From Lytechinus pictus (taxonomy: Eukaryota), in NCBI RefSeq assembly GCF_037042905.1, contig NC_087250.1:27654001-27718000 (forward strand): DNA of 64,000 bases, read 5' to 3'. Under the pieces are notes generated by a model. The model was not told the origin of the DNA. It made no database searches and was given only the letters and a program-made list of their open reading frames with translations. A program made the position numbers and the translations under genes. Numbering within the stretch: the stretch's first letter is position 1; each line of letters begins with the position of its first letter. Of this stretch, positions 1,861-28,632 are shown piece by piece.

Positions 1861-2281
1861 TCAGTTAATTCAAACAACTACACCACTGTCATATTGAATT
1901 TATGTTCAATACTTCACCAAAATAATATATCAAAATATGATAACACAACACAAGAAATACATTTAATTATTAAATTATAAAGAATAAAGAAGATTATGAC
2001 AATGACAATTAATGAAAGTGAAATGTGAAGGAACCTGCATAAAAAGCAGAGCTTATAATGTCTGCTTGTTCCTAATATGTTATGGATGCTATTATTATGA
2101 TGGTCAAGTTTATCTCACAAAAGATAATGTATGTACCGACATACACCTTTCTTCTTCTTTAGAACCCCCCCCCCCCCATCCCCGTGATGGCTACCATAAT
2201 GTGACAGTGATCTGAAGTCGGTTATCATAATCGGGAACCCCCTCCCCCCCCGTCATGTTTATCCATTATACGTCAAAGGAT

Positions 2282-5200: not shown

Positions 5201-6759
5201 ATGCCCCCCCCCCCCCCATTGCCCAATTGACAAGAATACAGCACTGTGTTTTAGAAACATGCATGTCAGGTCAAAATATTTATGTGAAAAGAAGATCAAA
5301 TGAAATATTTTTAAACTGATAATGTCGTCTTCCATTATGATCGTGGAGGCATTATGTCAGTTTTGTGTTGTGGCCACATATCAAGATGCTCAAAGCTACC
5401 CGTCACAGGATGACTTAATATGATAAGGGGGGGGGGGTCGGGCTGAAAATAATATAGAGTGATAACCAGTTACCAAAATGCTGAAAATTTCATTAAGATA
5501 TGATTAAAAAATATCGATGTTAGTCTATTTCAATGCATATACAGCTATAATTTTTTCTGAAAGAAAAGTTATGTGCATGCCGTCATGAATATTCATTAGA
5601 TGGGCTGATGACATCATGTCCAGGGACATAGGAACGATTATTTTAAATAGCGGGTGACGGGGTACTCGTTAAAAATAACAAACAAAACAAAAAGAAGAAA
5701 AAATAGTTAACTAGATGACGCCTGAGGGGATTTCGGTAAGAAAAAAATAAAACAACAATATTTGCTGCCAAATGTTCCTCCATTTGAATAATTTGTTTTT
5801 CTTGTCAACTTAATGGCAATGGAGTACTTCCTATGTGATAGCATACACAACACTCTCTGAAAAATCATGAGGGGTGATTGAGCATTCACCCCAGTACCCC
5901 CGCTTCACACTTTATTAAAGGTCAAGTCCACCCCAGAAAAATGAATGATTTGAATAAATAGAGAAAAATCAAACTAGCAAAATGCTGAAAATTTCATCAA
6001 AATCAGATGTGAAATTAGAAAGTTATGAAATCTTAAAGTTTTGCTTATTTTTCACAAAACATTGATATGCACAACTGAGTGACATGCAAATGAGACAGTC
6101 GATAATGTCCCTCACTCACTATTTCCTTTGTTTTTTTATTGTTTGAATTATACAATATTTCATTTTTTTCAGATTTGACAATAAGGACCAACTTGACTGA
6201 ACTATATAGTATTAAACAATGCTAATTCCACATGTTCAGGGAGAAATTAATTGTTTGTTCACTTGACAATGAAAGGAAAATGAGAATATTTCATATTTCA
6301 TATAATAAAATACAAAAGAAGTAGTAAGTTGATGACATCATCAGTTTCCTCATTTGCATACCGACCAGTATGTACGTATAACTGTTTTGTGAAATTAAGC
6401 AAAATTTTGAAATGCCATAACTTTCTTATTTTACATCCGATTTTCATGAAATCTTTAGTGTTATGCTTGTTGGATTTTTCTCATTTTATTCAAATCAGCT
6501 TTTTGTTGGGTTGGACTTGTCCTTTCAGTTATTAGATGAAACATATTCCTCTACTATCTGAAGACATGTTTAGATGATAAATATATTACACATTTAACAT
6601 TGTTTAATCAGTAGTCAATTCATGTTTTCCGTTCTTGGTGGACGAAATTTGACGAAATATAATTTTCCATAAAATAAAATAAAAAAGAATAAGTGCGGAT
6701 TAGACTGCAGACACAGACCCTAATTGGAACTTCGATCAACCAGTGTGCCTCCACGCAAA
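2282..6759 (+). repeat. Recent ~2-kb direct tandem duplication (2282-4317 and 4805-6759) with a TE-derived spacer
   Basis: Near-identical copies; ORF-track peptides at 3897 and 6329 are identical. Copy 2 has a ~100-bp deletion. Confidence 0.95.
3488..4091. mobile_element. Kolobok-like MITE (duplicate at 5919-6523; relative at 50551-51150)
   Basis: TTAA|AGGTCAAGTCCA...TGGACTTGTCCT|TTTA. The paralog has an empty TTAA site at ~43238. Confidence 0.8.
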
Positions 6760-7938: not shown

Positions 7939-8367
7939 GGACGCACATCACTAATGGGATCCGGCAATTTCGGGAATCCCCTTTTGACCCCTACCGAAAA
8001 TGACGTAATGGTTACGTGGTTTCACATGGGCATAGAGAGGGATTACTACTGGATATCTGTTCAGTCCCATGGGAGAGCAGTAATTTGTCAATTCTGGATT
8101 TTATGGGACCTTAATTAGTTGCCCAAGAAACCCTGTGAGCACCGTGACTGTAACCAAGTTTGCATGTAGTCTTGGTTTGAGTCCCTGTAGCGCAAAAAAT
8201 GCTGAAAACCTTTTTTTCATATTTTTAGCGTTGGAAGGATATTGGATGAACTACCAAATGATAAAGGTTTCGATGGTGTCATCAGTAAGACTTATTTTTG
8301 CGATTTTTTTTTCAAATCTCATTTTTAACGCATGAGTCTATGGGGAAATAATTAATAGTGTGTGCCC
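7939..8367. mobile_element. Unclassified TIR insertion with ATAT target duplication
   Basis: ATAT|GGACGCACATCACTAAT...ATTAATAGTGTGTGCCC|ATAT, with an imperfect TIR. Flanks align with those of 46049-49432. Confidence 0.65.
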
Positions 8368-8424
8368 ATATACCTTAGTAGTAATCGATGGAAATGTGAA
8401 AAAAAATGTTCAAGTCCAAAGTCT

Positions 8425-8628
8425 AAAGTGAAAGTTGTTTATTCTTGGACTGAAACAGGCTGTGGAATTCCCCGTGTTTTTCAATACACACTGCACGTCT
8501 AACTCATACCATAGAGCTATTACGGTTATACCAATGTATCATGTAGCGTTAGCATACCGTCACACGGTAAACTGATAGTGTAAGCTGAAAGAGAGTGTGC
8601 AAGCCTATAACTGGATTTATCGGTAAGT
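8425..8628 (+). promoter_or_regulatory. Putative promoter/non-coding first exon, copy 1 (IRF-like site, NF-kB-like site, 5' splice donor)
   Basis: AAAGTGAAAGT at 8425-8435; GGAATTCCCC at 8464-8473 (reverse complement GGGGAATTCC); TTATCG|GTAAGT donor at 8623. Confidence 0.5.
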
Positions 8629-8822
8629 TTTGATAATTAGGAATGCCCTAAATCCGTATTTTGATTTTATTATTCAGCATTGATAAACTGGAGTACATGT
8701 AAGCTAATAATACTTGATAATCCTAAATCAGTTGGTTTACTGACGGTTGGTATATATCACTTGGTCTAATAATCAGATGGGCTAACAACGTTCGGGCTAA
8801 ATCCACTTACTCCGATTCTCTT

Positions 8823-9597
8823 TTGGTCTAATGACCACTTGGTCTAATAGTCAATTACTCTAATGACAACTTGGTCTAATAGTCCATTACTCTAATGACA
8901 ACTTGGTCTAATAGTCCATTACTCTAATGACAACTTGGTCTAATAGTCAATTACTCTAATGACAACTTGGTCTAATAGTCAATTACTCTAATGACAACTT
9001 GGTCTAATAGTCAATAACTCTAATGACAACTTGGTCTAATAGTCAATTACTCTAATGACAACTTGGTCTAATAGTCAATTACTCTAATGACAACTTGGTA
9101 TAATAGTCAATTACTCTAATGACAACTTGGTCTAATAGTCAATTACTCTAATGAAAACTTGGTCTAATAGTCAATTACTCTAATGACAACTTGGTCTAAT
9201 AGTCCATTACTCTAATGACAACTTGGTCTAATAGTCAATTACTCTAATGACAACTTGGTCTAATAGTCAATTACTCTAATGACAACTTGGTCTAATAGTC
9301 AATTACTCTAATGACCACTTGGTCTAATAGTCAATTACTCTAATGACAACTTGGTCTAATAGTCAATTACTCTAATGACAACTTGGTCTAATAGTCAATC
9401 ACTATAATGACAACTTGGTCTAATAGTCAATTACTCTAATGACAACTTGGTCTAATAGTCAATTACTCTAATGACAACTTGGTCAAATAGCCAATTACTC
9501 TAATGACAACTTGGTCTAATAGTCAATTACTCTAATGACAACTTGGTCAAATAGCCAATTACTCTAATGACAACTTGGTCTAATAGCCAATTAATGA
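8823..9597. repeat. 32-bp minisatellite, ~24 copies
   Basis: Unit TTGGTCTAATAGTCAATTACTCTAATGACAAC, made of two related 16-bp halves; highly homogeneous, with no spacers. Confidence 0.95.
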
Positions 9598-9982
9598 CCA
9601 TTTGAAATCGTCAAGTATTTCAATGAATGATTTGTGAAAAATATATACGATATACGTTCCCCACAACATGACTACTTTCATACAAGAAGATATTTATTTT
9701 GTGAATCACCCAGAGTATAAAAATGACTTACTTGTGACATTAACAAAGATCACTGATTACATTGTTTGTGCTGGATTCCCATGTGTTTACAATCCAACCT
9801 TTGGGCTTATCTAATCTTGAGAAGAAAAAAAGAGAAGATTTTGTAATTAAGTGGGAACCTAATCTTGATGGATAATGTGAATGTTCAATAACAAGAATGA
9901 AAACCTCATCAATATTGATGTTTAATATAGAATCATGCCTCAGTGTCTACATGATCAGGATATCTCAAAAAGTCGATTGATT

Positions 9983-10210
9983 TGATAACATTCGGTAGAA
10001 ATGATAACATTTGGTAGTAGTGATAGCATTCGGTAGAACTGATAACATTCCGTAAAAAATGATTACATTCAGCAAATACGATAATATTCTGTAGAAATGA
10101 TGACATTGTGTATAAATGTGTTAACATTCCGTAGAAATGACAGCATTCAGTAGAAAAGATATCATTCTGTAGAAATGATAACATTCGCTAGAAGTTATCA
10201 TTCGGTAGAT
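9983..10210. repeat. Degenerate 19-bp minisatellite, ~12 copies
   Basis: Consensus GATAACATTCGGTAGAAAT. Confidence 0.85.
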
Positions 10211-11229
10211 CATTGGCGCCCTCTACATTCATTTATGTTTACATACTTCATTAGTGAGGTCAATTTGATTACATCATCATATCATTTTCACTAGCGGTCA
10301 ATGGCATCTCAAGTTATGAACCTGCCTTGATGGATATTAAAACCCTTCATATTCAATAACATTCACGATGTAGATTAACATAATAAGACATGTTCATATT
10401 TTCATATTTAAGTCAGAATTCGACATGACAAATATTTTGCATTTGTGATGAAGAATGTTTTATCATAATATGTATTGTTAGCGATAGTGATGATATTAGA
10501 TAATACATTCTTGTTAATTGTGTGCATTCTAAACTCGTGTTTAAGCGAATGACACATGTTATGTTGTTGATAGTTATAATCCTTTTTTCTACAAGACTGA
10601 TATCACATAGTATTCTGTGAATTATTTGATACTTGTTCCCCACCCCCTCTCATATGTTTATACCAACTCTCTCTTATTTTCATATTTCCCCTCTCTCTCT
10701 CTTCAACGTAAATATTTTTTGCACGATCACCATATTTCTTTCTCTATATGTTTTTTTATGTTTATAAAGTTTGGAGTTATATTTAAATTGCTGATAATGA
10801 TAATCAAGTTCTCTAGATTCCAATCAGATTTATTGTAACAATCATCAATATCGTATAAATTTCAGCTGTATTTTAGTTCTATGAACTATTGCTCATTATA
10901 TAGTGTACTCAAGAGCCTTTGCTGAAAATAGAAAACAGAATTGTGTATGTGTCGTATTTCTTCAGTATTTCATATCCAGATAATCAAAATTTGCTTCATA
11001 AAAATGGACACTACACAAATCCAGTGAATTTATATTTTCAGGTGCGTTATAGCTATAACAATCTACATCCAATGATGTATTTTAGAAGCGCTTTTAGATT
11101 TTTATATAAGTAGAAAAGGTATATACCTTAGTTCTAAAACTCTGTTTCGTTATCTCTTTTATAATCTCTGATTGTATATTATGTGATACAAAAAATGCAC
11201 TTGCTTGCTAGTAAATATACATGTATATA

Positions 11230-11830
11230 ACGGAGACCTTGTTGATCAAAAAAAAGAGAGAGACAGTGAGAATGAAGACCGGAAAAGAGGGAGGGAGAAA
11301 TGGAGAGACAAGGGGAATAAGAGAGAGAGAGAGAGGGAGGAGAAGATTTAAAGAACTACCGAGAGACAAGGAATGGTGAAGAGATGGGGGAGGGGAGGGG
11401 GTGAATTTGTAATTGAATTTGTATTTGTATTTTCCTTTCTCATGAAACAAAGTGATATTACATTACAAAGTTAAATATATCAAAAACCATGTCATCATAG
11501 TAATTCATACCATAATTGAAGAAGGGTGAATTTGAACTACGTAGATAGAATTGGCTTCATCGACATTCGCTAAACAAAAAACACACACCACAGAGTGGCT
11601 TATTAATAAAGAATGAATTTAAGAGATAGAAAAAACGAAGGAAGAGAATAAAAAAGAATGAGAGAGAGAGAGATAGGAAGAGAACAATCCCAACGCTTCT
11701 TACTTTTTGTATAACCAGGAAATAAAGTACGATTACATGATATTAAATTATATTAGTGACCATTACGCTACTTCAATATATTATAAAAAAAACATCATTG
11801 TCATGACTGTCATATTGAATTTATGTTATG
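11230..11830 (+). repeat. Segmental duplication block A, with copies at ~40720-41920 and fragments at ~14680-15800
   Basis: Shared agaactaccgagagacaagg, gtgaatttgta...tttgtatttgtattttcctttc and atattaaattatatta...gtgaccatt. Confidence 0.85.
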
Positions 11831-13701
11831 TTAATTTATGTCACATGTACATATTTAAATCAAACTAAAATTATCAAAAGAGGTCATGGTGCACGGTTTA
11901 TACGCAAATAAATTATAGGAATGAGGAGAGGGGTTGGAGGGGAAAGTTCCACCCCTCAGTTTTCTCAAATTTTGATATGCAAGAATGTTTAACTGCATGT
12001 ATGTTTTGTGCACTAGACAAAAACGTCAGATTATCATTAGCGAAACTTCATAAATTATCTTCTTTATTATTATTTGATATTTTTTTAAGAATTCACCCCG
12101 AATCAAAAATGAAATTTTAACACAATCCGCCGGTATATTATTTCATTGCGTGTCAACAAACAGTATTTTATTACGTTGATAATATTAACTGCGTGTCAAC
12201 AGAGACGGTACCATTATGTTGATAATAATGTACTGGCATCCACTGGAACGGTAACAAAAAAGCGAAACAATAATACAAGAGAAAAAAAATTATTTGATGG
12301 GTGTTTTATAAAGCTGTTCGTAATAAATGTACGAATGACTTTACGCAAGGCTGGTACATGTTCTCAGGTGATGAAGACAGGTACATAAGTATCCGTTAAC
12401 CAAAGAACGGTTCAACAGTCATGTTGCGTCATTCGTCATAACTCACGGGCAGCTTTATAAAAAACCCAGCCGAGAGATTTTCACATTGACTGCTAACAAA
12501 GCATTGCCATAACCTTTGACTTCCATTATTGAAAGCAACTCGATACATGTATGGTTTGAAGATATTTCGAAATGATTATTTATGCGAAAAGAAGGAGATA
12601 ATATTCTAACCTCCGTTAATAGAGCCGCTATAGAAAATTATATATCACGGCAATTATAGACGATAGTAGATATAAATCAGTGACACTGATTATGCACTTT
12701 GAGCACTCCACAAAGTGTATTTGGTGTTTTTTTAAACATTAATTTTATTAACATTATCATCATATATTTATGTATATGATATACGTTGAGAAAATATTAA
12801 TTTTTAAATGATTCTTAATCGTATGATTAACGTAAAATAGAGCAGAGAGGGTTTGTATGTGACAGATAATGGTAATTTATTCATTACAAAACTACACGAC
12901 TAAGAGCAGACCATCTTTAAATCTTTTTAACCGAGTCCATTAGGTATTATTGATCATTTTCAAGCAAACTATTATTCTTGTATTCGTGTTATTAAAGAGA
13001 TTTGAATTTTTCGCTTGCATGGTCGTAGTAATCATTTTGGAAGAAAAGGCACTTCATATTAAACAGCATATAGAAAGTGATAGGAATATAGGATTCTTGA
13101 CCAAACTTGTAAAGTGTTTTAGTTACTTAAGAAAACTTACATTTGACATTTTTTTTATTTACATGTATATTTCTTGTGTACTGTAAAAGGCAACTATAAA
13201 AAAATCTAGCCGCTATGTTCTATTGGGAATCAAACCTTTGACACAATAAACACCATCATGGAGCGACTAAAAAGATTTCAACAATTTTATACTCATTACC
13301 AGGAATCAAGAACTATTACTTTACATATATTTGAAAGCGTACAGTAATTTTGTACAGCCTCTGCTATTAAGTCAGGTTCCCAACGTTTGTTACACTCTCT
13401 AGTGTACCCTATAACATGTATAATAAATACTTAATTTCATCTTAGAATGCTATGTTTAAGAACATCATTCTGATATACCCATTGGCCATATCTTATTTAT
13501 TGTAAAAGTGTAACAAATAAATTCTGATTCAATTCAATACATCCTGTATTATTTCTTCCGTTTCAGTTATTACTAAACCCACAATTACTGTATGTCATTG
13601 CTATACTGTAAGCCACATTAAACTTGTAGTTGTATAAAATTGGATCGTAATGATATCTAACATTGGGTATTTTATTTGATTTGTGCACTGATCCAGGATG
13701 T

Positions 13702-13826
13702 GGAAAATCCCCAATATGTTTTAATACACATTGCACGTCTACTCAGTTGCACACTAAACTCGTATTCATTCACACAGTGTACAGAGATTGTTAGCTGAAA
13801 GAGTATACTTGAACTTATCGGTGAGT
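13702..13826 (+). promoter_or_regulatory. Putative promoter/non-coding first exon, copy 2
   Basis: GGAAAATCCCC at 13702-13712 (NF-kB-like); Inr-like TCAGTT at 13743-13748; TTATCG|GTGAGT donor at 13821; TGACGTCA (CRE) at 13992. Confidence 0.55.
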
Positions 13827-14119
13827 ATGTAGCTTTGGAAATATATTTTTTGGAAAAATAGTAAGGGACATGACTAGTAACTTACATTAAATACATTTGA
13901 TCTACTTTACTATAATTTGGCTATTGTTCTGGACATGACTGTGCTTAAAAACAAATGTCATACCGAGTCTTTCTGATAAAATCCCTCGTAATGACGTCAT
14001 CCCTACAACACATGTAGCTCGTCTAATTTTCTGTTAGCACTGACAAGGACAAAGGTTGCAAAAAAGCAAAGATCCCATGCTTGGGGGATACTTTCTTTTA
14101 CTGATAATGAATGAAATCT

Positions 14120-14613
14120 GATATCACACTGTACTTTTTTCCCTTCACCCCGGGAAATTGATGGGGCAAATGGGGGGGGGGGGGGGGGGGGGCTTAGCCC
14201 CACCAATTTCCCGGAGTTAAGCTTAGCCCGCTTCGTTTTCACACTACGTTTTAGCAAAGTTGGCTGGCACGGTAAATAATACGGTACTATCTGGCCCTGC
14301 CAAAAAATCAGGGTTAGCCGGTGCTAATTGCGATGCTAAGAGATGCAGTGTGAAACGAAAGTGGGCTAAGGAGGAAAAGTGGGGCTAAGCATTAACCAAT
14401 CACAAAAGTCGAAATTGCACGTTAATCGCGTTCTGTATGATAAAATCATCAATATTAATGAGCTGTGTGATAGTCCAGGGTTTAGGTGATAACCCCGGCT
14501 AAGCAAATAGTATGGGGTTAAGAAAGACAGTGTGAATAACAAAATAGTATTGGGTTAAGGATAGTACGGGGTTAAAGGAAAGAATGGGGTTAAGGAAATG
14601 CAGTGTGAAAAGC
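14120..14613. mobile_element. MITE, possibly PIF/Harbinger-like
   Basis: Imperfect TIR tcacactg..tttccctt / aaggaaatgcagtgtgaaaagc, with internal GGGGCTAAG/GGGGTTAAG repeats. Confidence 0.5.
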
Positions 14614-14779
14614 ATAATAGAAGGGTAGCAGTGTTTTTTGCTCTCATAAATCAAAATAATCTAATCATTGTAAAATGAAATATATCACAAGGCATGTCAT
14701 TTATTGGAATTCAGAGCAAAATTGAAGAAAATATGAATTTGAACTCCGTAGATTGATCTAGTTTTGTGAAAAAAATAAG

Positions 14780-15410
14780 TATTGTATTGTATTGTTATTT
14801 ACAATTACAAACGAATGATCATTAAAAAGACGGAGGGATTGCCCTACTCAGCGTTGATATCATATCAAAGCTGTTTTACAGAGGGGTCCCTTACATAGAT
14901 ATACATGTAATTATAATACAGGAAAAGAAAAACGTAATTAGTTGACTTAGGATAAAGACGTTGAGAAAATGTGAAAAAGTAAGAAAAAAAAAGATTTACA
15001 ATATATATATATATATATATATATACAAGATAACAAAGTAAGATAGTAAGAACAAGGGATCTGAACTAAAAATTACAAGAAGTCTGGAAAAATGTTTTTA
15101 AGATTTTTTTTTAAGGCATCGATATTTTCTATTCATTTCATGTGATGGGGAAGAGTATTATAATGAGATGCACCTCTGTATTGGATAGTGTGTTTTGGGT
15201 TTGGGTAAAGCAAAGTTATGAGAATTACGTAGTGAATATTGATGAGAAGATGGTTGAAACATACCGGACATAATTGGAGATAACATGCCATGGACTGATT
15301 CATAAACAAATATGTTAAGATTTTTTTTACGTCTAGATTCAAGAGAAGACCAATTTAAAACTGAACGAATTTGTACATTAGAGATATGATCAAATGGATT
15401 GACTTTCATT
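14780..15410 (-). mobile_element. 3' fragment of an L2/Crack/Daphne-type LINE
   Basis: Frameshifted peptide LNWSSLESRR...HQYSLRNSHNFALPKPKT / QYRGASHYNTLP, typical of the CR1-group ORF2 C-terminus; (CAATA)n tail. Confidence 0.75.
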
Positions 15411-15583
15411 ATTATTCTTTTTTTTTTTTAGTAAAAGAACATATAACTAGGAGACTTTCCAGGAACTATTAAGTTTAGGAGATAGAAAAATGGGGATAAA
15501 AGAGAAAGAGAATAAAGAGGAGGGAGATAGCAAGCAAGAGTAGAAAGAAGCAGACAGAGAGAGAGTGTGCGGGGGTGTAGATA

Positions 15584-15748
15584 CACTGTAAAAAATGAGG
15601 TTCTAATTTAGCACTTACGGTGCTTGTATAGTGACTGCACTACGAGTGCTGAATTTCTAGTTAAAATTTAAGCTAGAAAATTAGCACTCGTAGTGCAGTC
15701 ACTCTACAAGCACTGTATGTGCTAAATTAGCACTTTACTTTTTTAGTG
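15584..15748. mobile_element. Palindromic CACTG-type MITE flanked by TA
   Basis: The whole element folds back (gtgactgcactacgagtgct / agcactcgtagtgcagtcac). Confidence 0.8.
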
Positions 15749-16104
15749 TAGATCCCAACGCCCCTACGTTTTGTGCATAACCAGGGAATGCCAGCACGAT
15801 TACAAGCTCGTTGGACGGCATGAAATTATGTCATTTCTTTACAAAGGTCAATATTGGGGAAACCCATTTATTATGCTTATCCATTCTACATCAAAAGATG
15901 GCGCTCTTCCAAGCTTTGATTACACTCACATTAAAGCACTTGATGAAGATGTGGTTCCGGACATTAAATCATTTGAAATCAGAAACAATGGGAAGTCTAC
16001 ATTATCTTCATTTGATAACTTCAGTAGGCTAAATACAGACTCCCTTTAAACAAAGCAATAAACTCACATTATATTCGGATTCACGATTAGTATGATATTG
16101 AAAT

Positions 16105-16875
16105 TGTACATAAATTTACATATTTTTAATGTATATTATGTGACATCTTTAATGTACATTAGTTTACAAATTTAATGTACATTATGTTACATCTTGAATG
16201 TACATCAATTTAAATTTTTAAAGTACATTAATTTACATATTTAATGTGCATCAATTTGCATGTTTGCATGTTTAATGTACATCAATTTACCGAATTAATG
16301 TACATTATTTACATCTCCAATGTACATTAATTTACATCTTTAATGTAAATCAATTTACATATTCGTGTGGAGGAGCCGTGGTGTAGTGGTTCTGACTCTC
16401 GCCTTGTAAACAGAGGGTCGTGTGTTCGAATCCCACCGCGGTGTAGCGTCCTTTGGCAAGGCGTTAATCCACACTTTGCCACTCTCGACCCAGGTGCTAA
16501 ATGGGTACCCGGTAGGATGTGACAGGCGACTGACTGGAATACTCCCAGGGAGTGGAGGATGTGTACACATTGCGGGAATGACTGATTGAATCCGACGACC
16601 GGGGTAATAATATATCTGTAAAGCGCTTAGACACGACCGTCGTTCCGATGGATTAAGCGCTTTATAAAAAGCGGTTATTATATTATTATTATTATATTCA
16701 ATGCATATCAATATACATTTTTAATGCACATCAGTTAAGATCTTTAATGCACATCAATTTACATATTTAATGTGCATCAATTTACATTTTTAATTTACAT
16801 CAAATTACATCTTTAATGTACATCAATTTACATTTTGGATGAACATTATTTTACATCTTTAATGTACATCATTTC
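16105..16875. repeat. Degenerate ~23-bp minisatellite interrupted by a SINE
   Basis: Consensus AATGTACATCAATTTACATCTTT. Confidence 0.85.
16365..16694 (+). mobile_element. Full-length tRNA-derived SINE
   Basis: A box TGGTGTAGTGG, B box GTTCGAATC, central ctcgacccaggtg..aaatgggtacc domain, (ATT)n tail, possible ATATTC TSD. Confidence 0.9.
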
Positions 16876-17030
16876 AAACTAGATTGACTACCTTATTTAT
16901 TTCACCATCTCCTTTTATTTTCCATTAGTCATCACTAAACATCCCCAAACTAAAGTGTTTTAACCAGAATATTTAAATTTATGAGTCAATAATTAACTTC
17001 GTTATATTGACCTTGCAAAATCTGTATGCC

Positions 17031-17524
17031 CCTGGGGGGGGGGGGGCAGTCGACACAAAAGTGGAAGGGGTGTGCCGCGGGCGAGACCCAAAAAACGGGG
17101 GCCTTGGAGCGGGCTTATTGTAAAAAGGAGGGTCCTCGGAACGGGGCTTCAGAACGACAAATGTTTGGAACGGGCATGCGTTCATGATGCAGCTAGCCCG
17201 GCGGCACGGCCGCCGACTTCACTCGCGCAGAGATGATGGTTGGACAGCGCTCTCGGCCGTTTTTCACCAAAATTGCAGCTTATTGTAGCAGATCAATGCG
17301 ACCGGAATGGCGAAACGAAAGTATGCGAAGCTTTGGAGCGGATTTCTTTCTTCCTTTTTTCTCGATAAGAAGAAAATGCTATGCCTTGGAGCGGCTTTCT
17401 TCGTTTTTTTTCTCAATAAGACAAAAATGCTACGCCTTGGAACGGAAATTGAGTGTAAAAATGGGGGTGCCCTCCGCGGCACATACCCACCGTGCATTAT
17501 ATGCTGAGTGCCCCCCCCCCCGGA
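17031..17524. mobile_element. GC-rich non-autonomous TIR element with a 7-8-bp TSD
   Basis: TGTATGCC|CCTGGGGGGG..GCAGTC...GAGTGCCCCCCC..CGGA|TGTATGCA. Confidence 0.75.
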
Positions 17525-19184
17525 TGTATGCACTGGGTGAGCGTTTCTTTTATTTATTTATTTTTTATTTATTTATTTCATTTCCAGGCAAGAAAACATG
17601 ACAGCAATATAAACATTACAAAAGAAATGTAAAATTGAGCACCAGCCAATGCCTGGGGATCACCTAAAAGAATTGAAAATTCTGGCGAGAGGTCCTCCAC
17701 ATTGGCTGGTGTCTACATGGAATAACACAAAATAGCAATATATTCAAACATGTAATTACAATACTTCTATATAAATTAACCTTCATCGTAATATGAATAG
17801 AAAAAACCAAGGTTATCGAATTAATACTTTAAGAAAAAATGCAGATTGGGTCAAATCAGGAATTAGTCATTTATCAAATTAGAGACAGAGATGGGAGGTC
17901 AATTGGTTGAATTTTGAGAGTCTGAAATGAATTGTATATGACATTTGTCACGGTTATGTGCGGGTTGAACCAAAAAAAAAAATCAGCAAAGTAAGTATAT
18001 AACAAATAATGATTTAAAAAAAAAATCAAGATTCATACCCAAAGTATATTCAAGCAAACGACATCTTAGATATCAACTCAATTTAAGCTACCATGTAAAG
18101 AAAAGTAAATGAATTCATGTGTAACAGAAAAAAAAAATAAAACAATATGAAGAATGGGAAAGTATGGCAAAGCATTAGAAAAAAAATAATCAATCATAAA
18201 TGAAACACACATTCAAAGTATTGGCCTGATGTGACAAGAACTAAGTTGAGAGCTTTACACGAAAATGGGAATGGTAATGAATTAATTATATAAAGGGGTA
18301 ATATAATTTCAGTTGATTGAAATGCAGGTATGGCAAATTATTAGAAAACCAAATAATCAATCAAAGTACAAACAAGAGTGTGACATATTAAATGTAAAAA
18401 AAAATCTAAGACATGCTAGGAAGCCTTTAGGGGGATCACAATTTTGATACTGCGTACGTGAGACTAAAAATTAAAAATAGTTCTAGCGTTATTAGGGTAT
18501 GGGTGCTAACAAGTTAATATGCTTCTATGAGGGGAGGTAATTCAAAGAGGAAATTTCGTAACACAAGACATTCAGTTAATTTATCGGAACCATTTTCATT
18601 CATCTTTACTGCACAATGATAGCCAACGAACTTTATGTAAAGATCTCCAAACTCTGTCTCCTCTTTGTTGGATTAATCTGAGTATTAGTTTTCTCTTTAA
18701 GACATCCAAACTTGTCTTTCACCCCCCCTTTAATCATCAATGGAAACCAAGAACAGTCACTAAACTCATTTTAATAACCCTATTAGTAGAAGTTGTTGTT
18801 TGAGCCTCTCTTATAAATTACATTATCTTTCCCTTCCATTTACCACATTTTTTAATTGTTCCTCTAAGTATATTTTATTTTTCATCAGAGTGTCCCTTAC
18901 CTTTGATTACGTACTATAAAAAACTTTACCCGTTCTTTACTCAGTATATTGTTATCAGTGTCTCTAATGTCTTGTAATCTTATGCCTCTTAATTTTCGTT
19001 ATTTCACTGATTTAGTTCAATATAAATGCAATATGTTTTTCTTTTTGATGTCAGCTACTGAGGTCTGAAATACAAAGGTCGAAAATTTGAACCTCACGAA
19101 TCATGATAATGTTTCGATAAATCTATAAAGAATTCACCCCCGTTGAATAGAAAAAATGCCATAATTCGTCTGTTATATTGAAAA

Positions 19185-19365
19185 TATGTCATTGCATGTC
19201 AACCCACACTGTTCTATTATGTTGATGATATTTCATTGCAAGTCAACACAGGCTGTCCTATTATGTTGATGATATTTCATTGCGTGTCAACCCAGGCTGT
19301 CCTATTATGTTGATGATATTTCATTGCGTGTCAACCCAAGGCTGTCCTATTATGTTGATAATAAT
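19185..19365. repeat. 44-bp tandem repeat, ~4 copies (2 copies in the paralog at ~12140-12225)
   Basis: Unit TTATGTTGATGATATTTCATTGCGTGTCAACCCAGGCTGTCCTA. Confidence 0.85.
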
Positions 19366-19806
19366 GTACCGGCACCCACTGGAACGGTAACTAACAAGGG
19401 AAAATAAAAATAATAAAAAAGGGACAAACTTGATATGGCAGTTTTGTCATAAAGTTGTTCCTAAGTTACGAATGGCTTTACTCAAGACTGGAATATGTTC
19501 TCAGGTGAAAAAGTCAGATACAAGTCATAGGGATCCGTTAACCAAAGAAAGGTTCACCAGTCTGTGTAAAGGCATTCGTCATAACTCACGAACAGCTTTA
19601 TGATACACACAATAGATAGATTTTCACATTCACATTGACTGATAACAAAAGATTACCAAAACCTTTGACTTCCATTATTGAAAGCAACTTGGTTTATAAT
19701 TCATGTATTTACTGTTTGAAGGTATGACGGAATGATTATTAACATTATTGAAAAGCAGAGATAATATTCTAACGTCCGTGGATGACGAGATCCGCTATAA
19801 AAAAAT

Positions 19807-21477
19807 GAGTATCTGAATATAAAAAAACAGCCAAGTCCAATTGAGTTAGCTTGTTCCTCCTACAATGACTCTTCTTGTGTATAAATGATAATTCTAAAAT
19901 CATCTAAAAATGCCTTAAATAAATGGGGAAAACCTCGTATGAATGTAAAAAAAGGCCCAAGTCCAGGGGGGCGTTTCATAAAGCTTTTCGTAAGTTAAGA
20001 GCGACTTTAAGAACGACTGGTGATCATTTCTTTATACGCGCTAAGCCATCGCAAATAAACATGTTGGTATGTACAATTTACCACAGGAATTGATCACCAG
20101 TCGTCCTTAAAGTCACTCTTAGCTTACGAACAGCTTTATGAAACACCACTTTTCATACCTTCATATCACTGCGCCCCATCTCATTACATTCCACTCTGTA
20201 CATACACTAACTGCATTATATTACTTTTTTATATTACAGTATTTGACAGAGATATGGTTCAATCGTTGTGACGGAATAAAAGTTTTCACCTGAATCTCTA
20301 GCTTTATTCAGTCCTACGTTATTATTATAAGTTTTTATTTTACAAGAGGAGAGAGGTATTTTCAATATTGATCAGATGTAAAGTGGAATCTTGTTTTGTT
20401 TTTGACCTGGTCTAAAATGTTTAAAAAGTAATAAGTAATTGAAGATCACTTGCAGATGTCTGTGATTCTCTGTTATCTGGGTATAATAGTACCCTGTATG
20501 TTGGATGGTGTGTGAGGGGTGCTTGGGTGGGTGTGAGTAAAAAGGAAATCCTCAAAACATAGCAAAAATAATAATTCCTATGGTAATGTGCGTGTGTGGA
20601 AGTGGGGCATGTAGGGACAGATTAAGTATTGATGTTTTCTTACAAAATTTGCTCACAATACAAACCAAGTTTATTTTGGAAGAATCACCCCCCCCCCCTA
20701 CCTCCAATTCACTAGCAAGCAATGCAATATAAATTCTTCCAATTTACAAATGCATTAAACAAAATATTTGGCAAGCATGAAATTAAGGTCCTTGCCAAGA
20801 AAAAGTTCTCACTACATTTACACGCCCAACCTAAAATTAAGTGAGGACGCCCTCTGTGTTTCTTGTTTTTCTATTTAATAATAAAAAAATTATAAAAGGG
20901 AAGGACCATACCCACGCGCCCCCCCCCCCCCCCCTCTTGGTGACATGGATGGAGGAAGAAGGAACTGTAGAGGAAGAAGGAACTGTAAAACACGAATGAT
21001 ACGTCATTCTGCAAACTCTGTTTTATATACATGTATAGATATATATTTGCAAACAGATACACATTTCTTCACTTTTAACACTCACATCCACATCCGCTCG
21101 CTCATCCCAAAACACATCAGCTATTAAAAAACCTAGAATATAAAAAGATAGGTAGCACAATTTTGTCTGACATATTAAACAAATCCCTTGTGTATCATTT
21201 GTTATACATTCAGTAGAACAAAGTCTACCATGTATATGAATGTAAGAATGACCCAAGTCCATATGATTCTAAAAACGACCCAATTCCACCAGACAAAAGG
21301 CCCCGCTCATAAGTAACATCAATATTATTGTTCATAAAAATACAATTTGTTTTATGATGTTCTCTGATGTCTTTAGGCAAAATATACTTTAATTGCCTAG
21401 TATAAAAGAAATATTTTTTTTTCGACTTTCTCGAAATACTTTCAACGGACTTGGGCCTTTGTTATATTCATATACTT
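19807..21477. mobile_element. Sola-like non-autonomous DNA transposon with a nested palindromic MITE (19966-20149)
   Basis: TIR GAGTATCTGAATATAA..CCAAGTCC / GGACTTGGGCCTTTGTTATATTCATATACTT; AAAT/AATT flanks; absent in the paralogs at ~1075 and ~12635. Confidence 0.7.
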
Positions 21478-22584
21478 AATTATATCATGGAAATGACATG
21501 TATACCATCATTATTAATTTTTCAAATTTTCTTAAGTGTATGATAAAATAGCAAATACATCATAAGAGGTTTTTGATGGAGAGATAATCGATAGTTTATT
21601 CATTACAAAATATACAATTAAGACAAGACTTTCTTCACATTTATTTAGCCGACTCCATTAGGTATTATCAATCATTTTCAAGCAAACTATTATTATTTTA
21701 TTGTTGCATATCATTAAGGTGAGTGGAATTCTTCGCGGCATGGTCAATTATTCATTTTGGAAGAAAAAGGCAGTTCACTTTAAACAACAGCTGTATAGAA
21801 AGAGACAGGATGTTTGATTACTGGTTAATGTTCAAATCTAGCCACGTGGACAGGTGTAGTTCAAATAAATGTTGGATTCTTAACACAACTTGTGATGTGT
21901 CTTAGTTACTTAAGAAAACTATTTTTTTTATTCATATTGTTAAGTGCATTTATCCATAATAAAGAGACTTTGTACTGATTTTTTGTTGGAAATAGAGTTA
22001 AATACCCAAACCGGGCCAAAAAGTGAAAACATATCATAACTTCTCGTACAAACATGATTTGAAGAAATCTTCAGCTTTTGACTAGTTTTTGTGATATCTA
22101 ATTAATCCTATTTGGCGCAGCTTTCAAATTCTGCATTAATATCATGTGTGTCAACTTCTCCTGACATAACAATTTAGGTAAAATAAGAGCCAAATAAGAC
22201 ATCAAAAAATTAATCGTTTCACTATTAGTTAGTGTCTGGGACTTTAAACTTGAATTTGAATAATGTCTCGGGCATGGGTGCTGATCAGTGTATATTGATA
22301 TTGGGTGTGGGTAAGTGAGTGTATGTGTAAGGGTGTGTGTGGGGGGGGGTGTGTGGGGGCTAGAAAAATTGATAAAGATGTCAGATATTGCGTTTTTTTC
22401 CGCAAGGGGACAAAGTTTCAGTTACAAAGAGTTACTACGTTTCTACTGCGCTAACCATTGGCACATTTGCTGTACTGGAAGCCACATTAGACCTGTAGTT
22501 GTATAGTTGTGAAGAGATGTGAAATGTAATATATAATTCCCAACATTGAGCATTTTATTTTATTTGTACACTAAACCATGATGT

Positions 22585-22711
22585 GGAAAATCCCAAATGT
22601 TTCACAATACACACTGCACGTCTACTCAGTTGTACATTGTATGCATTCATTCACACAGTGTATATATATTGTAAGCTGATAGAGGGTGTGTACTTAGACT
22701 TATAGGTTAGT
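22585..22711 (+). promoter_or_regulatory. Putative promoter/non-coding first exon, copy 3 (proximal to the TRIM-like ORF)
   Basis: GGAAAATCCC at 22585-22594; Inr-like TCAGTT at 22626-22631; TTATAG|GTTAGT donor at 22706. Confidence 0.55.
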
Positions 22712-24127
22712 ATGTAGCTTAAGAGTTATATTTTATTTGTGGGATAGGAATAAACATGATTTTGATAACTTATTCTATGAATATATTTGATCCACGTTAT
22801 TTTAACTTGGCTGTTGTTACGAACATGAGCTTCGAAAAAAATGCCCTAATGAAACTTTCCGATAAATTTCCTTTTAATGACGCAATCCCTACAGCACATG
22901 TAATGTACAGTAGCTCGTCTCATTTTCATGTTTTTGTTTCAAAACTTTTTGCTTATAAAGGTTGCCTCTGCATTTTCCCCATTAAGTTGTGCGTTTACAT
23001 TGTATTTATGTCTTACACTAGCTCGAGCTAAAGCCGGGGTAATAATAATAATAACAACGCGCCTCGGAAAAGAATATTTCTAGATAGATGGCGCTATATA
23101 AATGCCTATTATTATTATTACACTATCTGTTATCAAAACATTGTAAGCTGGTTATATGTCATTTAAGCCAGATTAGGTTTTTGCATCCCATGATTGGAAA
23201 CAAAATAATACCATTTCACAAAGAATATAATTTCCGCTTTCAAATTAAGATGATATGTACATCATAAGTACTTCTTTAATAAATTTCAGGCTTTAATTAT
23301 AGTTGATGTTATGTTTTACCGGTAGATGTTGTATAGAATCGCCTTTTTAAATTATTATTTGCTCCTTTTGTGATGGCAGCACTAATTATGCTTTTATGCC
23401 TTTAAGCTGCCTTGTTCATTTTTGAATTCTGTCTGGGTTTTGAGAGTGGGGTTTATATAAACATTGTCACAAATGTATTTTAATCCATGAATGAAATATA
23501 TACATATAAATGAATGATAATTCTTGTTTGGTCTATAGAAGTATTAGAAGGGACTATTTTTACTTTATAAAAGGAATTTTCATACAATATTCTATTTTCT
23601 TTTACCATTAAGAGAGCCTTACACTTTTTACTCTTCGAACATTTGAATTTCGCTTTGAGGTATACTCATTGCATAAACGCAGGCCCTAGACTTGCTAAAA
23701 TTGTTTGAAGTTGTTTGCGTTTGTTATTACGCACTATCAATATTTCATTCTCACATTCTTTGCAATTTGAGCACTGATCCATGTTTATCATGAACTAAAA
23801 ATAAAAACCATACCTCCTAATATGTTTATACACTGCACCTCTTTGTTTATCTGTGTATAATAATACATTATACGAGGATCTTAATTCAGTTTGATTATAG
23901 CTTATTAGTTCGACAAGGGCGTTAATATACACGTTAATTTAGTATGAATGTGTTGATGTTTGTGCGTGGGTGTGTCTACTTGCGTTTACGTCTGTTTGTG
24001 AGAATTTTGTGAGAATTCTATATTTAACGTTATTAGAGGTGTTAAAGAATCTTTAATATACCCTGGTAATATATTTTTTTTCAATTGTTTCTTGAGTTCA
24101 TTTTAACTTTTTTTTGCATTTTTTTAG
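22706..24127 (+). other. Predicted 5'-UTR intron of the TRIM-like gene
   Basis: GT donor at 22706; long T tract followed by TAG|G acceptor at 24126-24127, 30 nt before the ATG. Confidence 0.5.
23021..23120 (+). mobile_element. 5'-truncated SINE tail
   Basis: Matches the 3' end of the SINE at 46509-46740; (ATT)n tail; TTACACTA on both sides. Confidence 0.8.
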
Positions 24128-24157
24128 GTAGGCTACTGCCCCTATATTTTCTTCGTC

Positions 24158-25795
24158 ATGGCTTCTAAGTTCCCAACAAAGAAGAACGGAGAGGTCGAAC
24201 TTCGTACAAGGAAAGGTCATGACATGACATGGTCATGTGATGACCATGGTGAACCAATCAAATTCTACTGCTTAGAACACAAATTGCCAATTTGTCATCC
24301 ATGCGCGACCAAAGATCATCAGAAACCATGCAAGCTGAAAAACATCCAGGATATCATCTCCCAGAGGAGGGAGAATTTGGATGACAAAAAACCAAAGATA
24401 GAAGAAACGAAGAAACGACTGAAAACTCTGGTCTCCAAAATAGAAACCGTTGCGACGTCTGCAAGTAGAAGCATTGACGCAGTCAAGGACCAAGTGAAGA
24501 TGACATTCGAAGACAAGTTAAAGAGTGTAAGGGATAAGAAAGTGGGAATGGTTCGAGAGATTAACGAAGAGGCAGATGAGGAAATTAGAATGATTCATGA
24601 GAAAATGAACAAACGGATCAAGGATTGCAACACTGAGATAGAAAAGGAAGAAAAAATCATCAAAGACAAAGAAGCTAAATTGTTATCAGATACAAAGACA
24701 ATCAGTGAGGTAGTTACTAAGAAGACAAATAATCTCTCTTGTAAAAATCAGCATGCAATAAACACTTTGATGAATATTGAATCAACCATCAAACGTGTAA
24801 ACCAACATGATGAAACATTGGTGAATGAAGCTCCTCAAGTACTTGCATCTATTGATGAAAATTTAAGTTTGAATGTTCATCAAGATGTTAGCGATTGTCT
24901 TGACCGAATACAGAGTGAAGTTGAGAGAGTGAAGTTTGTAGAGAGGGAAGTAGGTGGAGAATACTATGGTAGAATTGGTGGGTATATCGGTAAATGGGAA
25001 CTTGTCAAGTCAATCCACATTCCATCGGTTGTTAATAAGCCGCGTGTGTGTGGTTTAGTCAGTGATGATGAGATATGTGTGCGAGACGAAGATAACAATG
25101 TCATGTATATTACAAACATCAACACTCAACACACAGAGAAAGTCATTGATGAAGGTGTGTGGATTACATCATGTGCGCCCATAGACAGTAACGTAATAGT
25201 ATGTGGTAAGGAGAGAGATGATTGCACGGATGACAGGTTGGATGGATGCATCACTCTCTATGACAGACAATGGAAGGTGATTAGAGACATCAGCAGTAAT
25301 AGTGTGTATGTTGATGTTGACAAGGATGGGATGATCCTCACTGGTCAGTTCGATCAGTCTAATATCTACATCATCAATCCTGCTGATGATAAGATAGTAA
25401 ACACTATTACGATGCAGGGTAAGGTGGTGTGGGGTGAGATACAAGCCTTGTCATCAGGTGATATCGTTGTGTGTACAGGTCGTAATAAATACACTGTCAT
25501 CTCACGATCAGGAGAAGAGAAGGCTGTCATACACTGTGATGGGTCGGACTGGCCACAGTGTCGCGTTGACAAACTGACAGACACACTCTACATCGCGTAC
25601 TGGGGTGGAGCGCGTAATCCCATCGCAGTTGATCAGGTGTCACGTGATGGTATCATCCAGGCAAGGAAGATCGTGGAATACGAGCAATCAGATCGCACTA
25701 ACTTATTGAGCCCTTGTCTCGTTACTCCTACTGGTAACTTTATAGGGTGTGATGGAAACAAACTTCTTCTCTACAAGAAGACATTAATCTTGTAA
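24158..25795 (+). CDS. RING-less TRIM-like protein: B-box type 2, coiled coil, NHL-like beta-propeller (545 aa, single coding exon)
   Basis: Intact ORF with gtcATGg context. CDDH-x7-CLEH-x4-CHPC-x4-H B-box motif; K/E-rich helical region at ~aa65-260; beta-rich ~40-45-aa blades from ~aa278. Confidence 0.9.
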   Translation: MASKFPTKKNGEVELRTRKGHDMTWSCDDHGEPIKFYCLEHKLPICHPCATKDHQKPCKLKNIQDIISQRRENLDDKKPKIEETKKRLKTLVSKIETVATSASRSIDAVKDQVKMTFEDKLKSVRDKKVGMVREINEEADEEIRMIHEKMNKRIKDCNTEIEKEEKIIKDKEAKLLSDTKTISEVVTKKTNNLSCKNQHAINTLMNIESTIKRVNQHDETLVNEAPQVLASIDENLSLNVHQDVSDCLDRIQSEVERVKFVEREVGGEYYGRIGGYIGKWELVKSIHIPSVVNKPRVCGLVSDDEICVRDEDNNVMYITNINTQHTEKVIDEGVWITSCAPIDSNVIVCGKERDDCTDDRLDGCITLYDRQWKVIRDISSNSVYVDVDKDGMILTGQFDQSNIYIINPADDKIVNTITMQGKVVWGEIQALSSGDIVVCTGRNKYTVISRSGEEKAVIHCDGSDWPQCRVDKLTDTLYIAYWGGARNPIAVDQVSRDGIIQARKIVEYEQSDRTNLLSPCLVTPTGNFIGCDGNKLLLYKKTLIL

Positions 25796-26034
25796 ATCAT
25801 CTAGACTATCAAAGGAATCATATCGGATTTGTAAGAGAAATATAGACCAGAGATTTGTTTTCACTTTTACTTCCATTTCAATTTACGTCCTTCTAGCTCT
25901 ATATGTACGTGACTACATTCATATACACATGGCCATGGTGTGTATAATGTTGTATCGATCCATATCAAATAGAAAACTGTCGCTAATGTCCACTCCGTCT
26001 AGATTTAGGTCTGTAATGAATGCACTCAGATCCA

Positions 26035-26069
26035 AATAAATAGTTTACTCGAAACCTGAACAAAATAAA
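26035..26069 (+). terminator. Candidate polyadenylation signals
   Basis: AATAAA at 26035 and 26064, ~240 nt after the stop codon. Weak evidence in AT-rich DNA. Confidence 0.35.
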
Positions 26070-26255
26070 TGCAAAATGTGTTAACGAATTGCCTACTTGA
26101 ACCAGATGGTTATTGTAGAAAATCTTTTAGAATGGCTGAATTCAGAATTGAACGTGTTAATAACTGAACTGATGTTATTCTCCTAATAGTGATCGGATTA
26201 TTCCTCGATTAAAATTGCTCTCAGCTTTTAAGGTATTTGATTCGAATCAATTAAT

Positions 26256-26420
26256 CAGGACCCCATTTCATAAAAATGTTGACTATGATAGCAACTCATG
26301 CTAAAATGTCAATTACCATGACAACAATAACGATTCTGGTTCCTGATTGGCTGATCCAATGAAATTTGATATTCAAACTGGAGTTGTTATCATAGCCAGG
26401 TTTTATGAAATGGTACCCTG
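26256..26420. mobile_element. Palindromic MITE
   Basis: CAGGACCCCATTTCATAAAA...TTTTATGAAATGGTACCCTG. Confidence 0.7.
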
Positions 26421-28632
26421 GTTGATTTCATTGTTTTTTTAGTCTGTGGTAAAAAAAAAAAAAAAAAAAAAGAACGGAAAGGGGTCAAAACTGCATGAAA
26501 TTTAAGTTTCGTAATGTACACAATCCCCCCTCATGAAGTTAGATTAAAATAAGATAAAATCTCGTAAATAATGGTGTTTAATAGGGTTCTTGTTTAGTCT
26601 ACATTCATATGTCAATATAAAGGGAAAGGGATAATGTTTCCCGTATAATTCTTTTTTTGCCAATTAAATATTCTCTAGTCATGTATAACAAAATAGGTGA
26701 GATTTTTTCAAAAATATTTAGCACACGGTATATTCATCAGATTCCTGAAAGTATTGCATCATATTATTTATTTCAATCAGTTCATTTTTCTTCGCTTGTA
26801 CAACTTTTACTTTATCCTCATATCGCTTAATATTTTCAACATAGATTACTGATTAATTGTTTCCCTACACGAATAATATCATCTTACACATTGGCTACCT
26901 GACTATCAAATCTTAAGTAACAATAATATGGAAGTGAAACATTTTTTTTAAATAGTTATTTGTGTCGACGTTCTGTAATGATGTATTCGCACCTACACTG
27001 TTAGAAAAATTTCCGTTTTTTAACGGAAAAAGTCCGGCAGCAAAATTTCCGGACTTTTTTTTTTTTCCGTAAATTTACAGAAAGTGGTAATTTATGGAAA
27101 AGTTCTGTAAAATATACAAGATTCCGTAAATTACAATTCTTGAAAATACGGACTTTATTTACGGAAACTTTACAGAAAATTTACATAAATTAACATGATT
27201 CCGTAAAAATAATTAACGGAAAAAAAAAATTTGTCCGGAAATTTTGCTGCCGGAAATTTTTTTTTTTGTCCGTAATTTTACGGATTCCTTTTCCGTAAAA
27301 TTACCGTACTTTTACAAAATTCCCATATAAATACGGATTTTATTTACGGAAATTTTACAGAAAATTTACGTGAATTAACATGATTCCGTATAAATAATTA
27401 ACGGAAAAAAAAAAATTGTCCGGAAATTTTGCTGCCGGAATTTTTTTTTTTTGTCCGTAATTTTACGGATTCCTTTTCCGTAAAATTACCGTACTTTTAC
27501 AAAATTCCCATGTAAAATACGGATTTTATTTACGGAAATTTTACTGAAAATTTACGTGAATTAACATGATTCCGTATAAATAATTAACGGGGAAAAAAAA
27601 TTTGTCCGGAAATTTTGCTGCCGGAATTTTTTTTTTAAATCCGTAATTTTACGGATTCCTTTTCCGTAAAATTACCGTACTTTTACAAAATTCCCATGTA
27701 AATTTACACATTTCCGTAAAAAAACAAGTTTACAGAATTCTTAAATTTTTTACAGATATTTTTTAATCAGTAGATACCTTACAATAGGAACGCTGATTTG
27801 CTATTTAAACATGTACTCCCAAACACATGGTAGATTGTATGAATGCATTCACTTAAGGCCTGAACAAAAATTGTGTTGCCCTTTTCTGACCTGGACAAAT
27901 CGGGCCAGCTTTTTTCAATAATTTTTTTCATACTAAGCTTACTATTTCTAGAATAAAACATGGCAACAGTGATTGTGTCTCGCCCACTCATGAAAATAAC
28001 CAGAAATATTGTGATTTGCGAGGGCACACAACATAATTGTATTGAAACTTCATTGTGAAATGACTGGGATGGAATAACACTTGTCATAAGAGCCTTGCAC
28101 ATAAACTTTAATGTTGACCTGTAAATTCAATTCAATTCAAAATGGTTTATTAAAAATCCTTTCTTTGCGGCAAATGCCGAATTGCGAAAATTTACATTTC
28201 AAACAAAATCATCAATAACAAGGTAAAAAACTTATAGTACTACGAACAAATTTCAATATAGACATATGTAACAAAGTATATCATAAATAAATTTAAATCG
28301 ATACTCACTGATCAATAAAAAAAATTGAAAAATATTCAAAATACATGTAAATATGAGTGGATAGAGGAAATGAATTGGAAAGCAGAAAGGAATAGAAATA
28401 GTGGAAGAGAGAAGAGAGGCAGAGAGAGAGAGAGAGAGAGGAGAAGAAATTGATGGTGGAAGGGAAACAGAGAGAAAAGGGCGAAGAAGCAATTAGGTCA
28501 CATTTTTTCATACATGCTGCAATAATACATATTTTGGCAATTTTTGTGACTTCAATTCAAATATTAAGTTTACGACTAGATATCAGTGAATAATTGCTCA
28601 TATGAAAGAAAAATATTTTGATTAACAAAGTA

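Follow-up and report, generated by a model that had tools for sequence, protein, structure and literature searches.

Within a 64,000-nt stretch of the genome of the sea urchin Lytechinus pictus (assembly GCF_037042905.1, contig NC_087250.1, positions 27,654,001 to 27,718,000 of the forward strand; hereafter the window, numbered from its first letter), three related sequence modules lie on one strand ahead of an open reading frame (ORF) for a predicted B-box protein. We think it probable that these modules are cassettes stacked by duplication, in a fast-duplicating urchin cluster, upstream of this B-box/NHL-like gene. Each would be a copy of a cassette of roughly 250 bp, comprising a promoter and an untranslated leader exon, and the gene would have two exons: a non-coding leader and, after the acceptor at 24127, a second exon with the whole ORF. 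A preliminary description of this DNA had proposed a different reading, in which three functional alternative promoters and first exons, under selection, have separate mixes of sites and may all serve one coding exon under several immune signals; we regard that as unlikely, on evidence set out below. The features on which the argument turns are as follows:

8367-8463, plus strand: upstream part of module 1, of the type-1 kind, aligning to module 4 and to other type-1 cassettes
about 8425-8436, plus strand: IRF-like string of module 1, TAAAGTGAAAGT, one letter off the strict pattern
8464-8473, minus strand: kB-like site of module 1, GGAATTCCCC, a consensus match (minus-strand reading GGGGAATTCC)
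8484-8622, plus strand: core of module 1, ATACACACTGCACGTCTA (8484-8501), and presumed non-coding leader exon, with the donor G/GTAAGT at 8623
12358-14482, plus strand: duplicated unit of module 2, with block A (12359-13417), a leader exon running to 13820 and the donor G/GTGAGT at 13821
13702-13712, minus strand: kB-like site of module 2, GGAAAATCCCC, a consensus match; the core follows at 13724-13741
21533-23273, plus strand: duplicated unit of module 3, with a leader exon running to 22705 and the donor G/GTTAGT at 22706
22585-22594, minus strand: kB-like site of module 3, GGAAAATCCC, a consensus match; the core follows at 22607-22624
23597-24127, plus strand: proximal intron of the ORF subfamily, in which the acceptor AG (24126-24127) follows a polypyrimidine tract
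24128-25795, plus strand: second exon, a 30-nt part of the 5′ untranslated region (UTR) and then the ORF, 24158-25795 (545 aa)

Reading the sequence placed all three modules where the preliminary description had put them, each with a kB-consensus site, the common core ATACACAYTGCACGTCTA and a GT donor. Their paralogy is well above chance: modules 2 and 3 agree at 73% of positions across about 470 nt (E = 1e-69), and module 1 is 76-77% identical to both over 71 nt (E = 6e-7). A four-way alignment that includes a fourth copy in the window (module 4, described below) extends the homology across the entire cassette; in it, module 1 carries a 35-nt insertion relative to the other cassettes, and the 5′ end of its exon, like the places at which transcription would start, is a presumed position. 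Every module is embedded in a bigger duplicated unit of 1.7-2.1 kb, which had been overlooked, and into that of module 3 a repeat has been inserted at about 23020-23120.

Several lines of evidence indicate that the modules are very probably promoter/leader-exon cassettes of one gene cluster, as far as can be read from sequence comparison. First, they belong to a small family confined to that cluster. A profile search with nhmmer returned 28 distinct cassettes in the genome, 25 of them within 1.9 Mb of contig C6, the window's own (26.1-28.0 Mb), two on C8 and one on C17. Module 3 used as a query matched 19 places, 16 on C6 in the same interval, and module 1 matched on C6 only (26.2-27.9 Mb). 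At zero or one mismatch the 18-nt core occurs at 8 places, all within the cluster; at two mismatches it occurs at 59 places against 52 for a control, near the control level. The preliminary description had named a genome-wide transposable element fragment as something that would refute its proposal; that idea was rejected, as the copies keep to the cluster and do not behave as a dispersed element would. The inspected stretches comprised 10 kb upstream of 20 paralogs, among which the cassette profile was found in 2 of 20, and 1.5 kb around each cassette. The two copies on C8, L003 and L004, lie about 9.3 Mb apart on opposite strands, far from the main cluster, and have cassette sequences identical to each other, with no family ORF nearby among 80 scored candidates.

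Second, the splice signals expected of a leader exon and of its partner are both conserved. The homologous donor position reads GT in 28 of 28 cassettes, and 23 of these have GTRAGT (GTAAGT in 16 and GTGAGT in 7); the others are GTGAGC (2), GTATGT (2) and the GTTAGT of module 3, the sole cassette of the 28 with T at donor position +3. The 3′ half of the leader together with the donor is the best conserved stretch of the alignment (column conservation 0.90-0.98), as against 0.71-0.82 in the intron. On the acceptor side, the first clear acceptor followed by an ORF is where it had been proposed: the string tttttttag ends at 24127, with the ATG at 24158. The ORF, which tblastn finds in a single copy in the window, is one of nine that start MASKFP (the 'MASKFP' subfamily), and the acceptor and 30-nt UTR are conserved in all nine. 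The last 560 bp before it (23597-24157) are 81-83% identical to all eight of the other subfamily members, and upstream of about 23597 the window is unlike them. Another B-box subfamily, whose ORFs start MASRFP or MAARFP, has a different acceptor and no cassette within 10 kb. These conserved donors and the conserved acceptor support the view of the modules as cassettes of a promoter and a leader exon.

Third, cassettes and coding bodies are paired. The 28 cassettes take three forms: 18 of type 2, which have a kB-like site and include modules 2 and 3; 8 of canonical type 1, or 9 counting module 4; and a third form, module 1 and its copy L045, with type-1 flanks, an intact GGAATTCCCC and the 35-nt insertion. 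A single type-1 cassette lies 5.6-35 kb upstream of each of the nine MASKFP ORFs and no family ORF intervenes, and the next ORF downstream of a type-1 cassette belongs to the MASKFP subfamily in 9 of 10 cases. Given this one-to-one pairing, module 1 is the expected leader of the window's ORF. Of the 16 type-2 cassettes on C6, 10 have a Death-like exon, or the ORF to which one belongs, as the first coding feature downstream.

These observations bear on the suggestion that the modules are neither promoters nor exons but a locally amplified non-genic duplicon, whose GT and kB-like letters are simply inherited. Such a duplicon would account for the 1.7-2.1 kb units, along which identity is similar throughout in several pairs, for the copies that have no ORF nearby (L011, L012, L008 and those on C8 and C17) and for the three RNA-seq runs described below, in which RNA support was not found. 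It would not explain why there is a one-to-one pairing of type-1 cassettes with ORFs for which an upstream exon is required, a requirement that follows from the polypyrimidine tract and AG conserved just before their ATG, nor why GT persists in every copy, with the leader 3′ half and donor best conserved of all, though the intron beyond falls off. We consider this explanation improbable.

How the three cassettes came to be stacked is indicated by a sister stack 170 kb away (C6, 27.826-27.852 Mb). There, L015, L045, L013 and L002 follow one another in an order that mirrors the window, in which a relic precedes modules 1, 2 and 3:

780-1861, plus strand: relic of block A ('module 0'), 89% identical to 12359-13417, its cassette lost

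Where the window has this relic, the sister array has a full cassette, L015. L045 is 97% identical to module 1; the module 2 unit shares 90% identity with L013 and 86-92% with L009 and L012; and the module 3 unit, of 1.7 kb, is 82-84% identical to L002 and 81-83% identical to L003 and L004 on C8. The sister stack precedes a gene with a Death relic, a TIR exon and a propeller. As the stack thus stands ahead of two kinds of body, it looks like a segmental duplicate joined to two different coding bodies. The earlier notion of the stack as a regulatory device is not supported here: segmental duplication explains it, and the same stack is found before a different coding body. Duplicated or gene-less cassettes are frequent elsewhere in the cluster, among them L016 with L006, the identical pair L010 and L007, L011 with L012, and the partial L018.

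In the mechanism that we propose, the cluster would code for RING-less B-box/coiled-coil/NHL-like proteins and for paralogs in which Death-like and TIR-like exons replace the B-box. Module 1 would be the ancestral kind of leader of the ORF subfamily, and modules 2 and 3 would be of the kind normally found ahead of the Death/TIR paralogs, brought between module 1 and the ORF when segments were duplicated and recombined, the join falling at about 23.3-23.6 kb. Since the donors are kept, the orientation is the same throughout and the intervals lack coding exons, whichever cassette fires should splice to the acceptor at 24127 and give the same protein. In our own estimate the stack is a by-product of duplication and not a selected device; that at least two of its cassettes are used in vivo is possible, but we hold it to be the less probable outcome.

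The paralogs with which type-2 cassettes are associated differ from the window's gene at their N-termini. In P0087, P0080 and P0099, two extra exons stand in place of the B-box, the first Death-like and the second TIR-like, names that rest on atlas leads. Pfam reports TIR_2 in the longer paralogs at E = 0.005, under its cut-off, and searches of Pfam and of PDB sequences left a Death domain in them unconfirmed. The Death-like exons, too, have an acceptor just before their ATG. Neither a Death-like nor a TIR-like exon was found in the window. At the locus L024, the Death-like exon (L024:2004-2345) and the TIR-like exon (L024:6179-6703) precede the same coiled-coil and NHL-like body, giving an unusual Death/TIR/coiled-coil/propeller architecture; by itself, the Death-like exon matches the genome at 88 or more places, many of them on contig C8.

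The product of the window's ORF is predicted, with support from a structural model, to be a RING-less protein in which a B-box is followed by a coiled coil and an NHL-like beta-propeller. Its sole Pfam match is a B-box (PF00643, zf-B_box; residues 25-55, E = 4.3e-6, 27.2 bits against a cut-off of 24.1), whose Cys and His columns do not vary among 39 homologs. Pfam found no RING at E up to 0.1, the B-box has only about 24 residues ahead of it, and residues 1-22 are disordered in the model. The AlphaFold model, built with the 39 homologs, has a mean predicted local distance difference test score (pLDDT) of 86 and consists of the B-box, helices and a C-terminal propeller, the helices after the B-box being long (residues 63-257, pLDDT mostly above 90) and predicted to form the coiled coil. 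Foldseek gives the propeller target-normalised template modelling (TM) scores of 0.65-0.70 to NHL domains and of about 0.5 to WD40. No NHL repeat matches in Pfam at E up to 0.1, while the best TM-scores are those to NHL domains (7qrv, 7b2r, 1q7f, 7nyq and 6d69, with TRIM2, Brat, Mei-P26 and Thin among them). The ORF has matches at no fewer than 82 places in the genome, about 19 of them on the plus strand of C6 at 27.0-27.95 Mb, the window's own region, and relatives in L. variegatus and S. purpuratus, mostly named 'uncharacterized protein'. Among the paralogs L021-L033, the proximal intron is about 82% identical and the first 300-420 nt of coding sequence about 77-78% (window 23597-24467), so that the N-terminal coding part diverges at least as fast as the intron, which hints at relaxed or diversifying selection there.

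The kB-like sites of modules 1-3 all match GGGRNWYYCC exactly on the minus strand and, by this consensus match, are candidate NF-kB (Rel) sites. The window contains 12 matches to the consensus, several of which are copies of one another, against 3.18 ± 1.90 in 100 shuffles, none of which reached 12. Conservation of the motif, which the preliminary description had pointed out, is seen again in 15 non-redundant type-2 cassettes: 11-nt windows over the site score 0.96, the best value upstream of the leader, and GGAAAATCCC is kept in 12 of the 15. Nine of 11 type-1 cassettes, those of canonical form, have no kB site at all, a 26-nt deletion having taken out the kB-like site and the ATACACA part; as the canonical cassette of the ORF's own subfamily does without it, the site is not required for the family. 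In both L002 and L013, the sister-stack copies of modules 3 and 2, the first G of the site has become T. The IRF site earlier assigned to module 1 did not withstand a strict reading: the string in question, TAAAGTGAAA, is one mismatch from GAAANNGAAA. The strict pattern does occur, as GAAAGTGAAA, in 6 of the 8 canonical type-1 cassettes, module 4 included. Candidates for a cAMP response element (CRE) and for C/EBP in the modules are weak single-string matches. About 500 bp upstream of module 1 there is also a palindromic kB-consensus site, GGGAATCCCC, at 7972-7981, which is kept in L045 (position 343), and other kB-consensus matches in the window lie at 2233, 2627/5150 and 2675/5198.

Much of this could be counted in favour of three working, selected promoters. 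The modules share one strand, keep their donors, have no family coding exon between them and face a single conserved acceptor; the kB consensus is present in all three and in most type-2 cassettes; canonical type-1 cassettes, in 6 of 8 cases, have GAAAGTGAAA instead of kB, which gives the family two regulatory flavours; and stacks recur within the cluster. Furthermore, when module 3 is compared with L002, identity reaches 93-95% in the promoter (-90 to -1) and leader, as against 80-84% in the flanks. Against this stand the loss of the first kB-like G in both sister copies, the weakest donor of the 28 (GTTAGT) in module 3, the cassette nearest the ORF, and the RNA-seq runs, which contained no transcript or junction from the modules in 9600-27500. 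The short-intron units L025 and L033 have one cassette each, and the stack is thus not needed. Moreover, the recurring stacks are not independent, because they are related by duplication, L007 and L010 being the same. Together these points lead us to the judgement of unlikely given at the outset.

The expression data come from three raw RNA-seq runs of the same species and one study, of which about 6% each was used, with reads placed on 9600-27500. They bear on the earlier proposal that several modules are spliced to one exon, of which the structural part stands, as the arrangement would permit such splicing, and the part concerning use drew no support, as no transcript or junction of module 2 or 3 was found in these runs. 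In one small run, X1, which is only guessed to be RNA, coverage extends over 24214-27000 and leaves 23331-23927 empty, which fits a transcribed second exon. A motif spanning the predicted junction of leader and exon 2 had 9 genome matches at two mismatches against 7 for a control, giving no retrocopy; in metagenome contigs it had 71 matches, none resembling the leader or the ORF beyond the motif, and no transcript contig was found.

Very many RNA reads fall on three spots, 16375-16522, 19986-20026 and 23020-23120, with up to several thousand at 16443. All three are repeats with copies elsewhere in the window, and the reads mostly continue into sequence unlike it (shares 0.74-0.83), so they probably come from other copies of elements resembling short interspersed nuclear elements (SINEs). 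The copy at 23020-23120 is 98% identical to 46516-46616, inverted, and matches neither Rfam nor tRNA. These spots, at 16.4, 20.0 and 23.0 kb, together with the length of the intervals between the modules (5 and 9 kb), are what could be said for modules 1 and 2 being first exons of other genes at 8.7-22.4 kb, either non-coding RNAs or genes of small exons. That reading we consider very improbable, given that the spots are repeats and that the intervals yielded nothing of the kind. As the preliminary description had it, no coding exon is evident between the modules: a search for family exons found no Death, TIR or B-box exon; none of the 28 inter-module ORFs scanned (at least 70 aa, from 45 of at least 60 aa) had a Pfam match; and Rfam and tRNA scans of 8-27.5 kb returned nothing.

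A number of points weigh against our own reading of the modules as duplicated promoter/leader cassettes stacked as a by-product, and they concern both its promoter/leader part and its by-product part. In the three runs, RNA depth was 0-0.27 over the module 2 bin, 0-0.03 over the module 3 bin and 0-0.34 over the ORF, and no read supported modules 2 or 3 as an exon or a promoter; in X1, there was no junction or loose end at 24128 among the rows listed. The excess of conservation in promoter and leader over flanks is clear in one pair only and weak for module 2 against L013, L009 and L008, and it is a pattern that gene conversion might also produce. Because the cassettes are related by descent, the conservation counts do not represent independent events. 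Conversely, the extra promoter and leader conservation in cassettes that look orphaned could be a sign that selection has kept them, favouring the view in the preliminary description, and stacks of two to four cassettes recur in the cluster. Finally, away from the window, whole-genome searches alone were the basis for judging whether coding exons separate distant cassettes from the ORFs of the cluster.

A broader possibility, which we rate as doubtful and a little below the three selected promoters, is that two cassette flavours, IRF-like (GAAAGTGAAA) and kB-like (GGAAAATCCC), are shuffled among B-box or Death/TIR bodies and that the stacks of two to four are alternative promoters. If so, promoter shuffling would amount to a recurrent rewiring of which immune signal turns on which family member.

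Known genes offer parallels to both the promoter arrangement and the protein. In the vertebrate genes BDNF and NR3C1, one common coding exon is joined to any of several untranslated first exons, which have separate promoters, show no sequence relationship to one another and are documented to be in use. The urchin locus resembles them in having same-strand 5′ units with donors, one acceptor just before the start codon and a protein unchanged by the choice of unit. By contrast, its units are paralogs that arose recently from a single cassette, that segmental duplication has stacked and that are known here from sequence. The predicted protein likewise resembles the TRIM-NHL proteins (TRIM2, TRIM3, TRIM71, Brat, Mei-P26 and Thin) in the order of its parts, with a B-box, a long coiled coil and what may be a C-terminal six-bladed NHL-like propeller, and differs from them in having neither a RING nor a filamin domain, in being encoded whole in one exon and in coming from an echinoid-specific expansion.

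Expanded innate-immune gene families of sea urchins include the TLR, NLR and SRCR families. The ORF family is similarly large, clustered and fast-diverging, and some of its paralogs have Death-like and TIR-like N-termini. A 2026 paper reports 140 genes annotated as TRIM in the S. purpuratus genome and a rise of TRIM-like genes in S. purpuratus coelomocytes after ultraviolet B (UVB) exposure (PMC13043383); a term search of a paper on L. pictus infection found no mention of TRIM (PMC11688612). A literature search found no paper on the MASKFP subfamily or its promoters.

Should the cassettes prove active, they would make this locus a natural and compact case of regulatory diversification through promoter/leader duplication in an invertebrate immune-type family, in animals that are convenient for reporter tests of cis-regulatory DNA. 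Even as a by-product, the cassette families are useful markers for assigning 5′ ends to subfamilies among the B-box/NHL-like and Death/TIR/NHL-like genes of echinoids, a large family whose annotation is poor. The cassettes further illustrate that repeated kB-like motifs upstream of a gene can mean shared descent and not independent retention.

Two further features belong to the cassettes or their surroundings, the first of them overlooked in the preliminary description:

49432-49715, plus strand: module 4, a canonical type-1 cassette with GAAAGTGAAA and without a kB site
8805-9626, no strand assigned: tandem array of about 25 units of 32 bp, inside the intron directly after module 1

Module 4 is probably the next paralog's leader; the ORF of that paralog begins about 4.3 kb after the window ends. 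A 32-bp tandem array also follows the copy of module 1 in the sister stack, L045. After module 2 lie two arrays of a 23-bp unit, within 16076-16920, which are common to the paralogous unit in L021. Inside the long first intron of the next paralog, open frames at 54490-55353 and 61198-61908 have, by eye only, the look of a retroelement Gag with CCHC zinc knuckles and of an endonuclease of the long interspersed nuclear element (LINE) type. Near the start of the window, 2282-6759 is a tandem duplication of 2.4-2.5 kb with 98% identity; it holds an element of about 610 bp (3484-4096) that matches itself in reverse, giving it the look of a foldback element or a miniature inverted-repeat transposable element (MITE), and another copy of which lies at 50542-51152.

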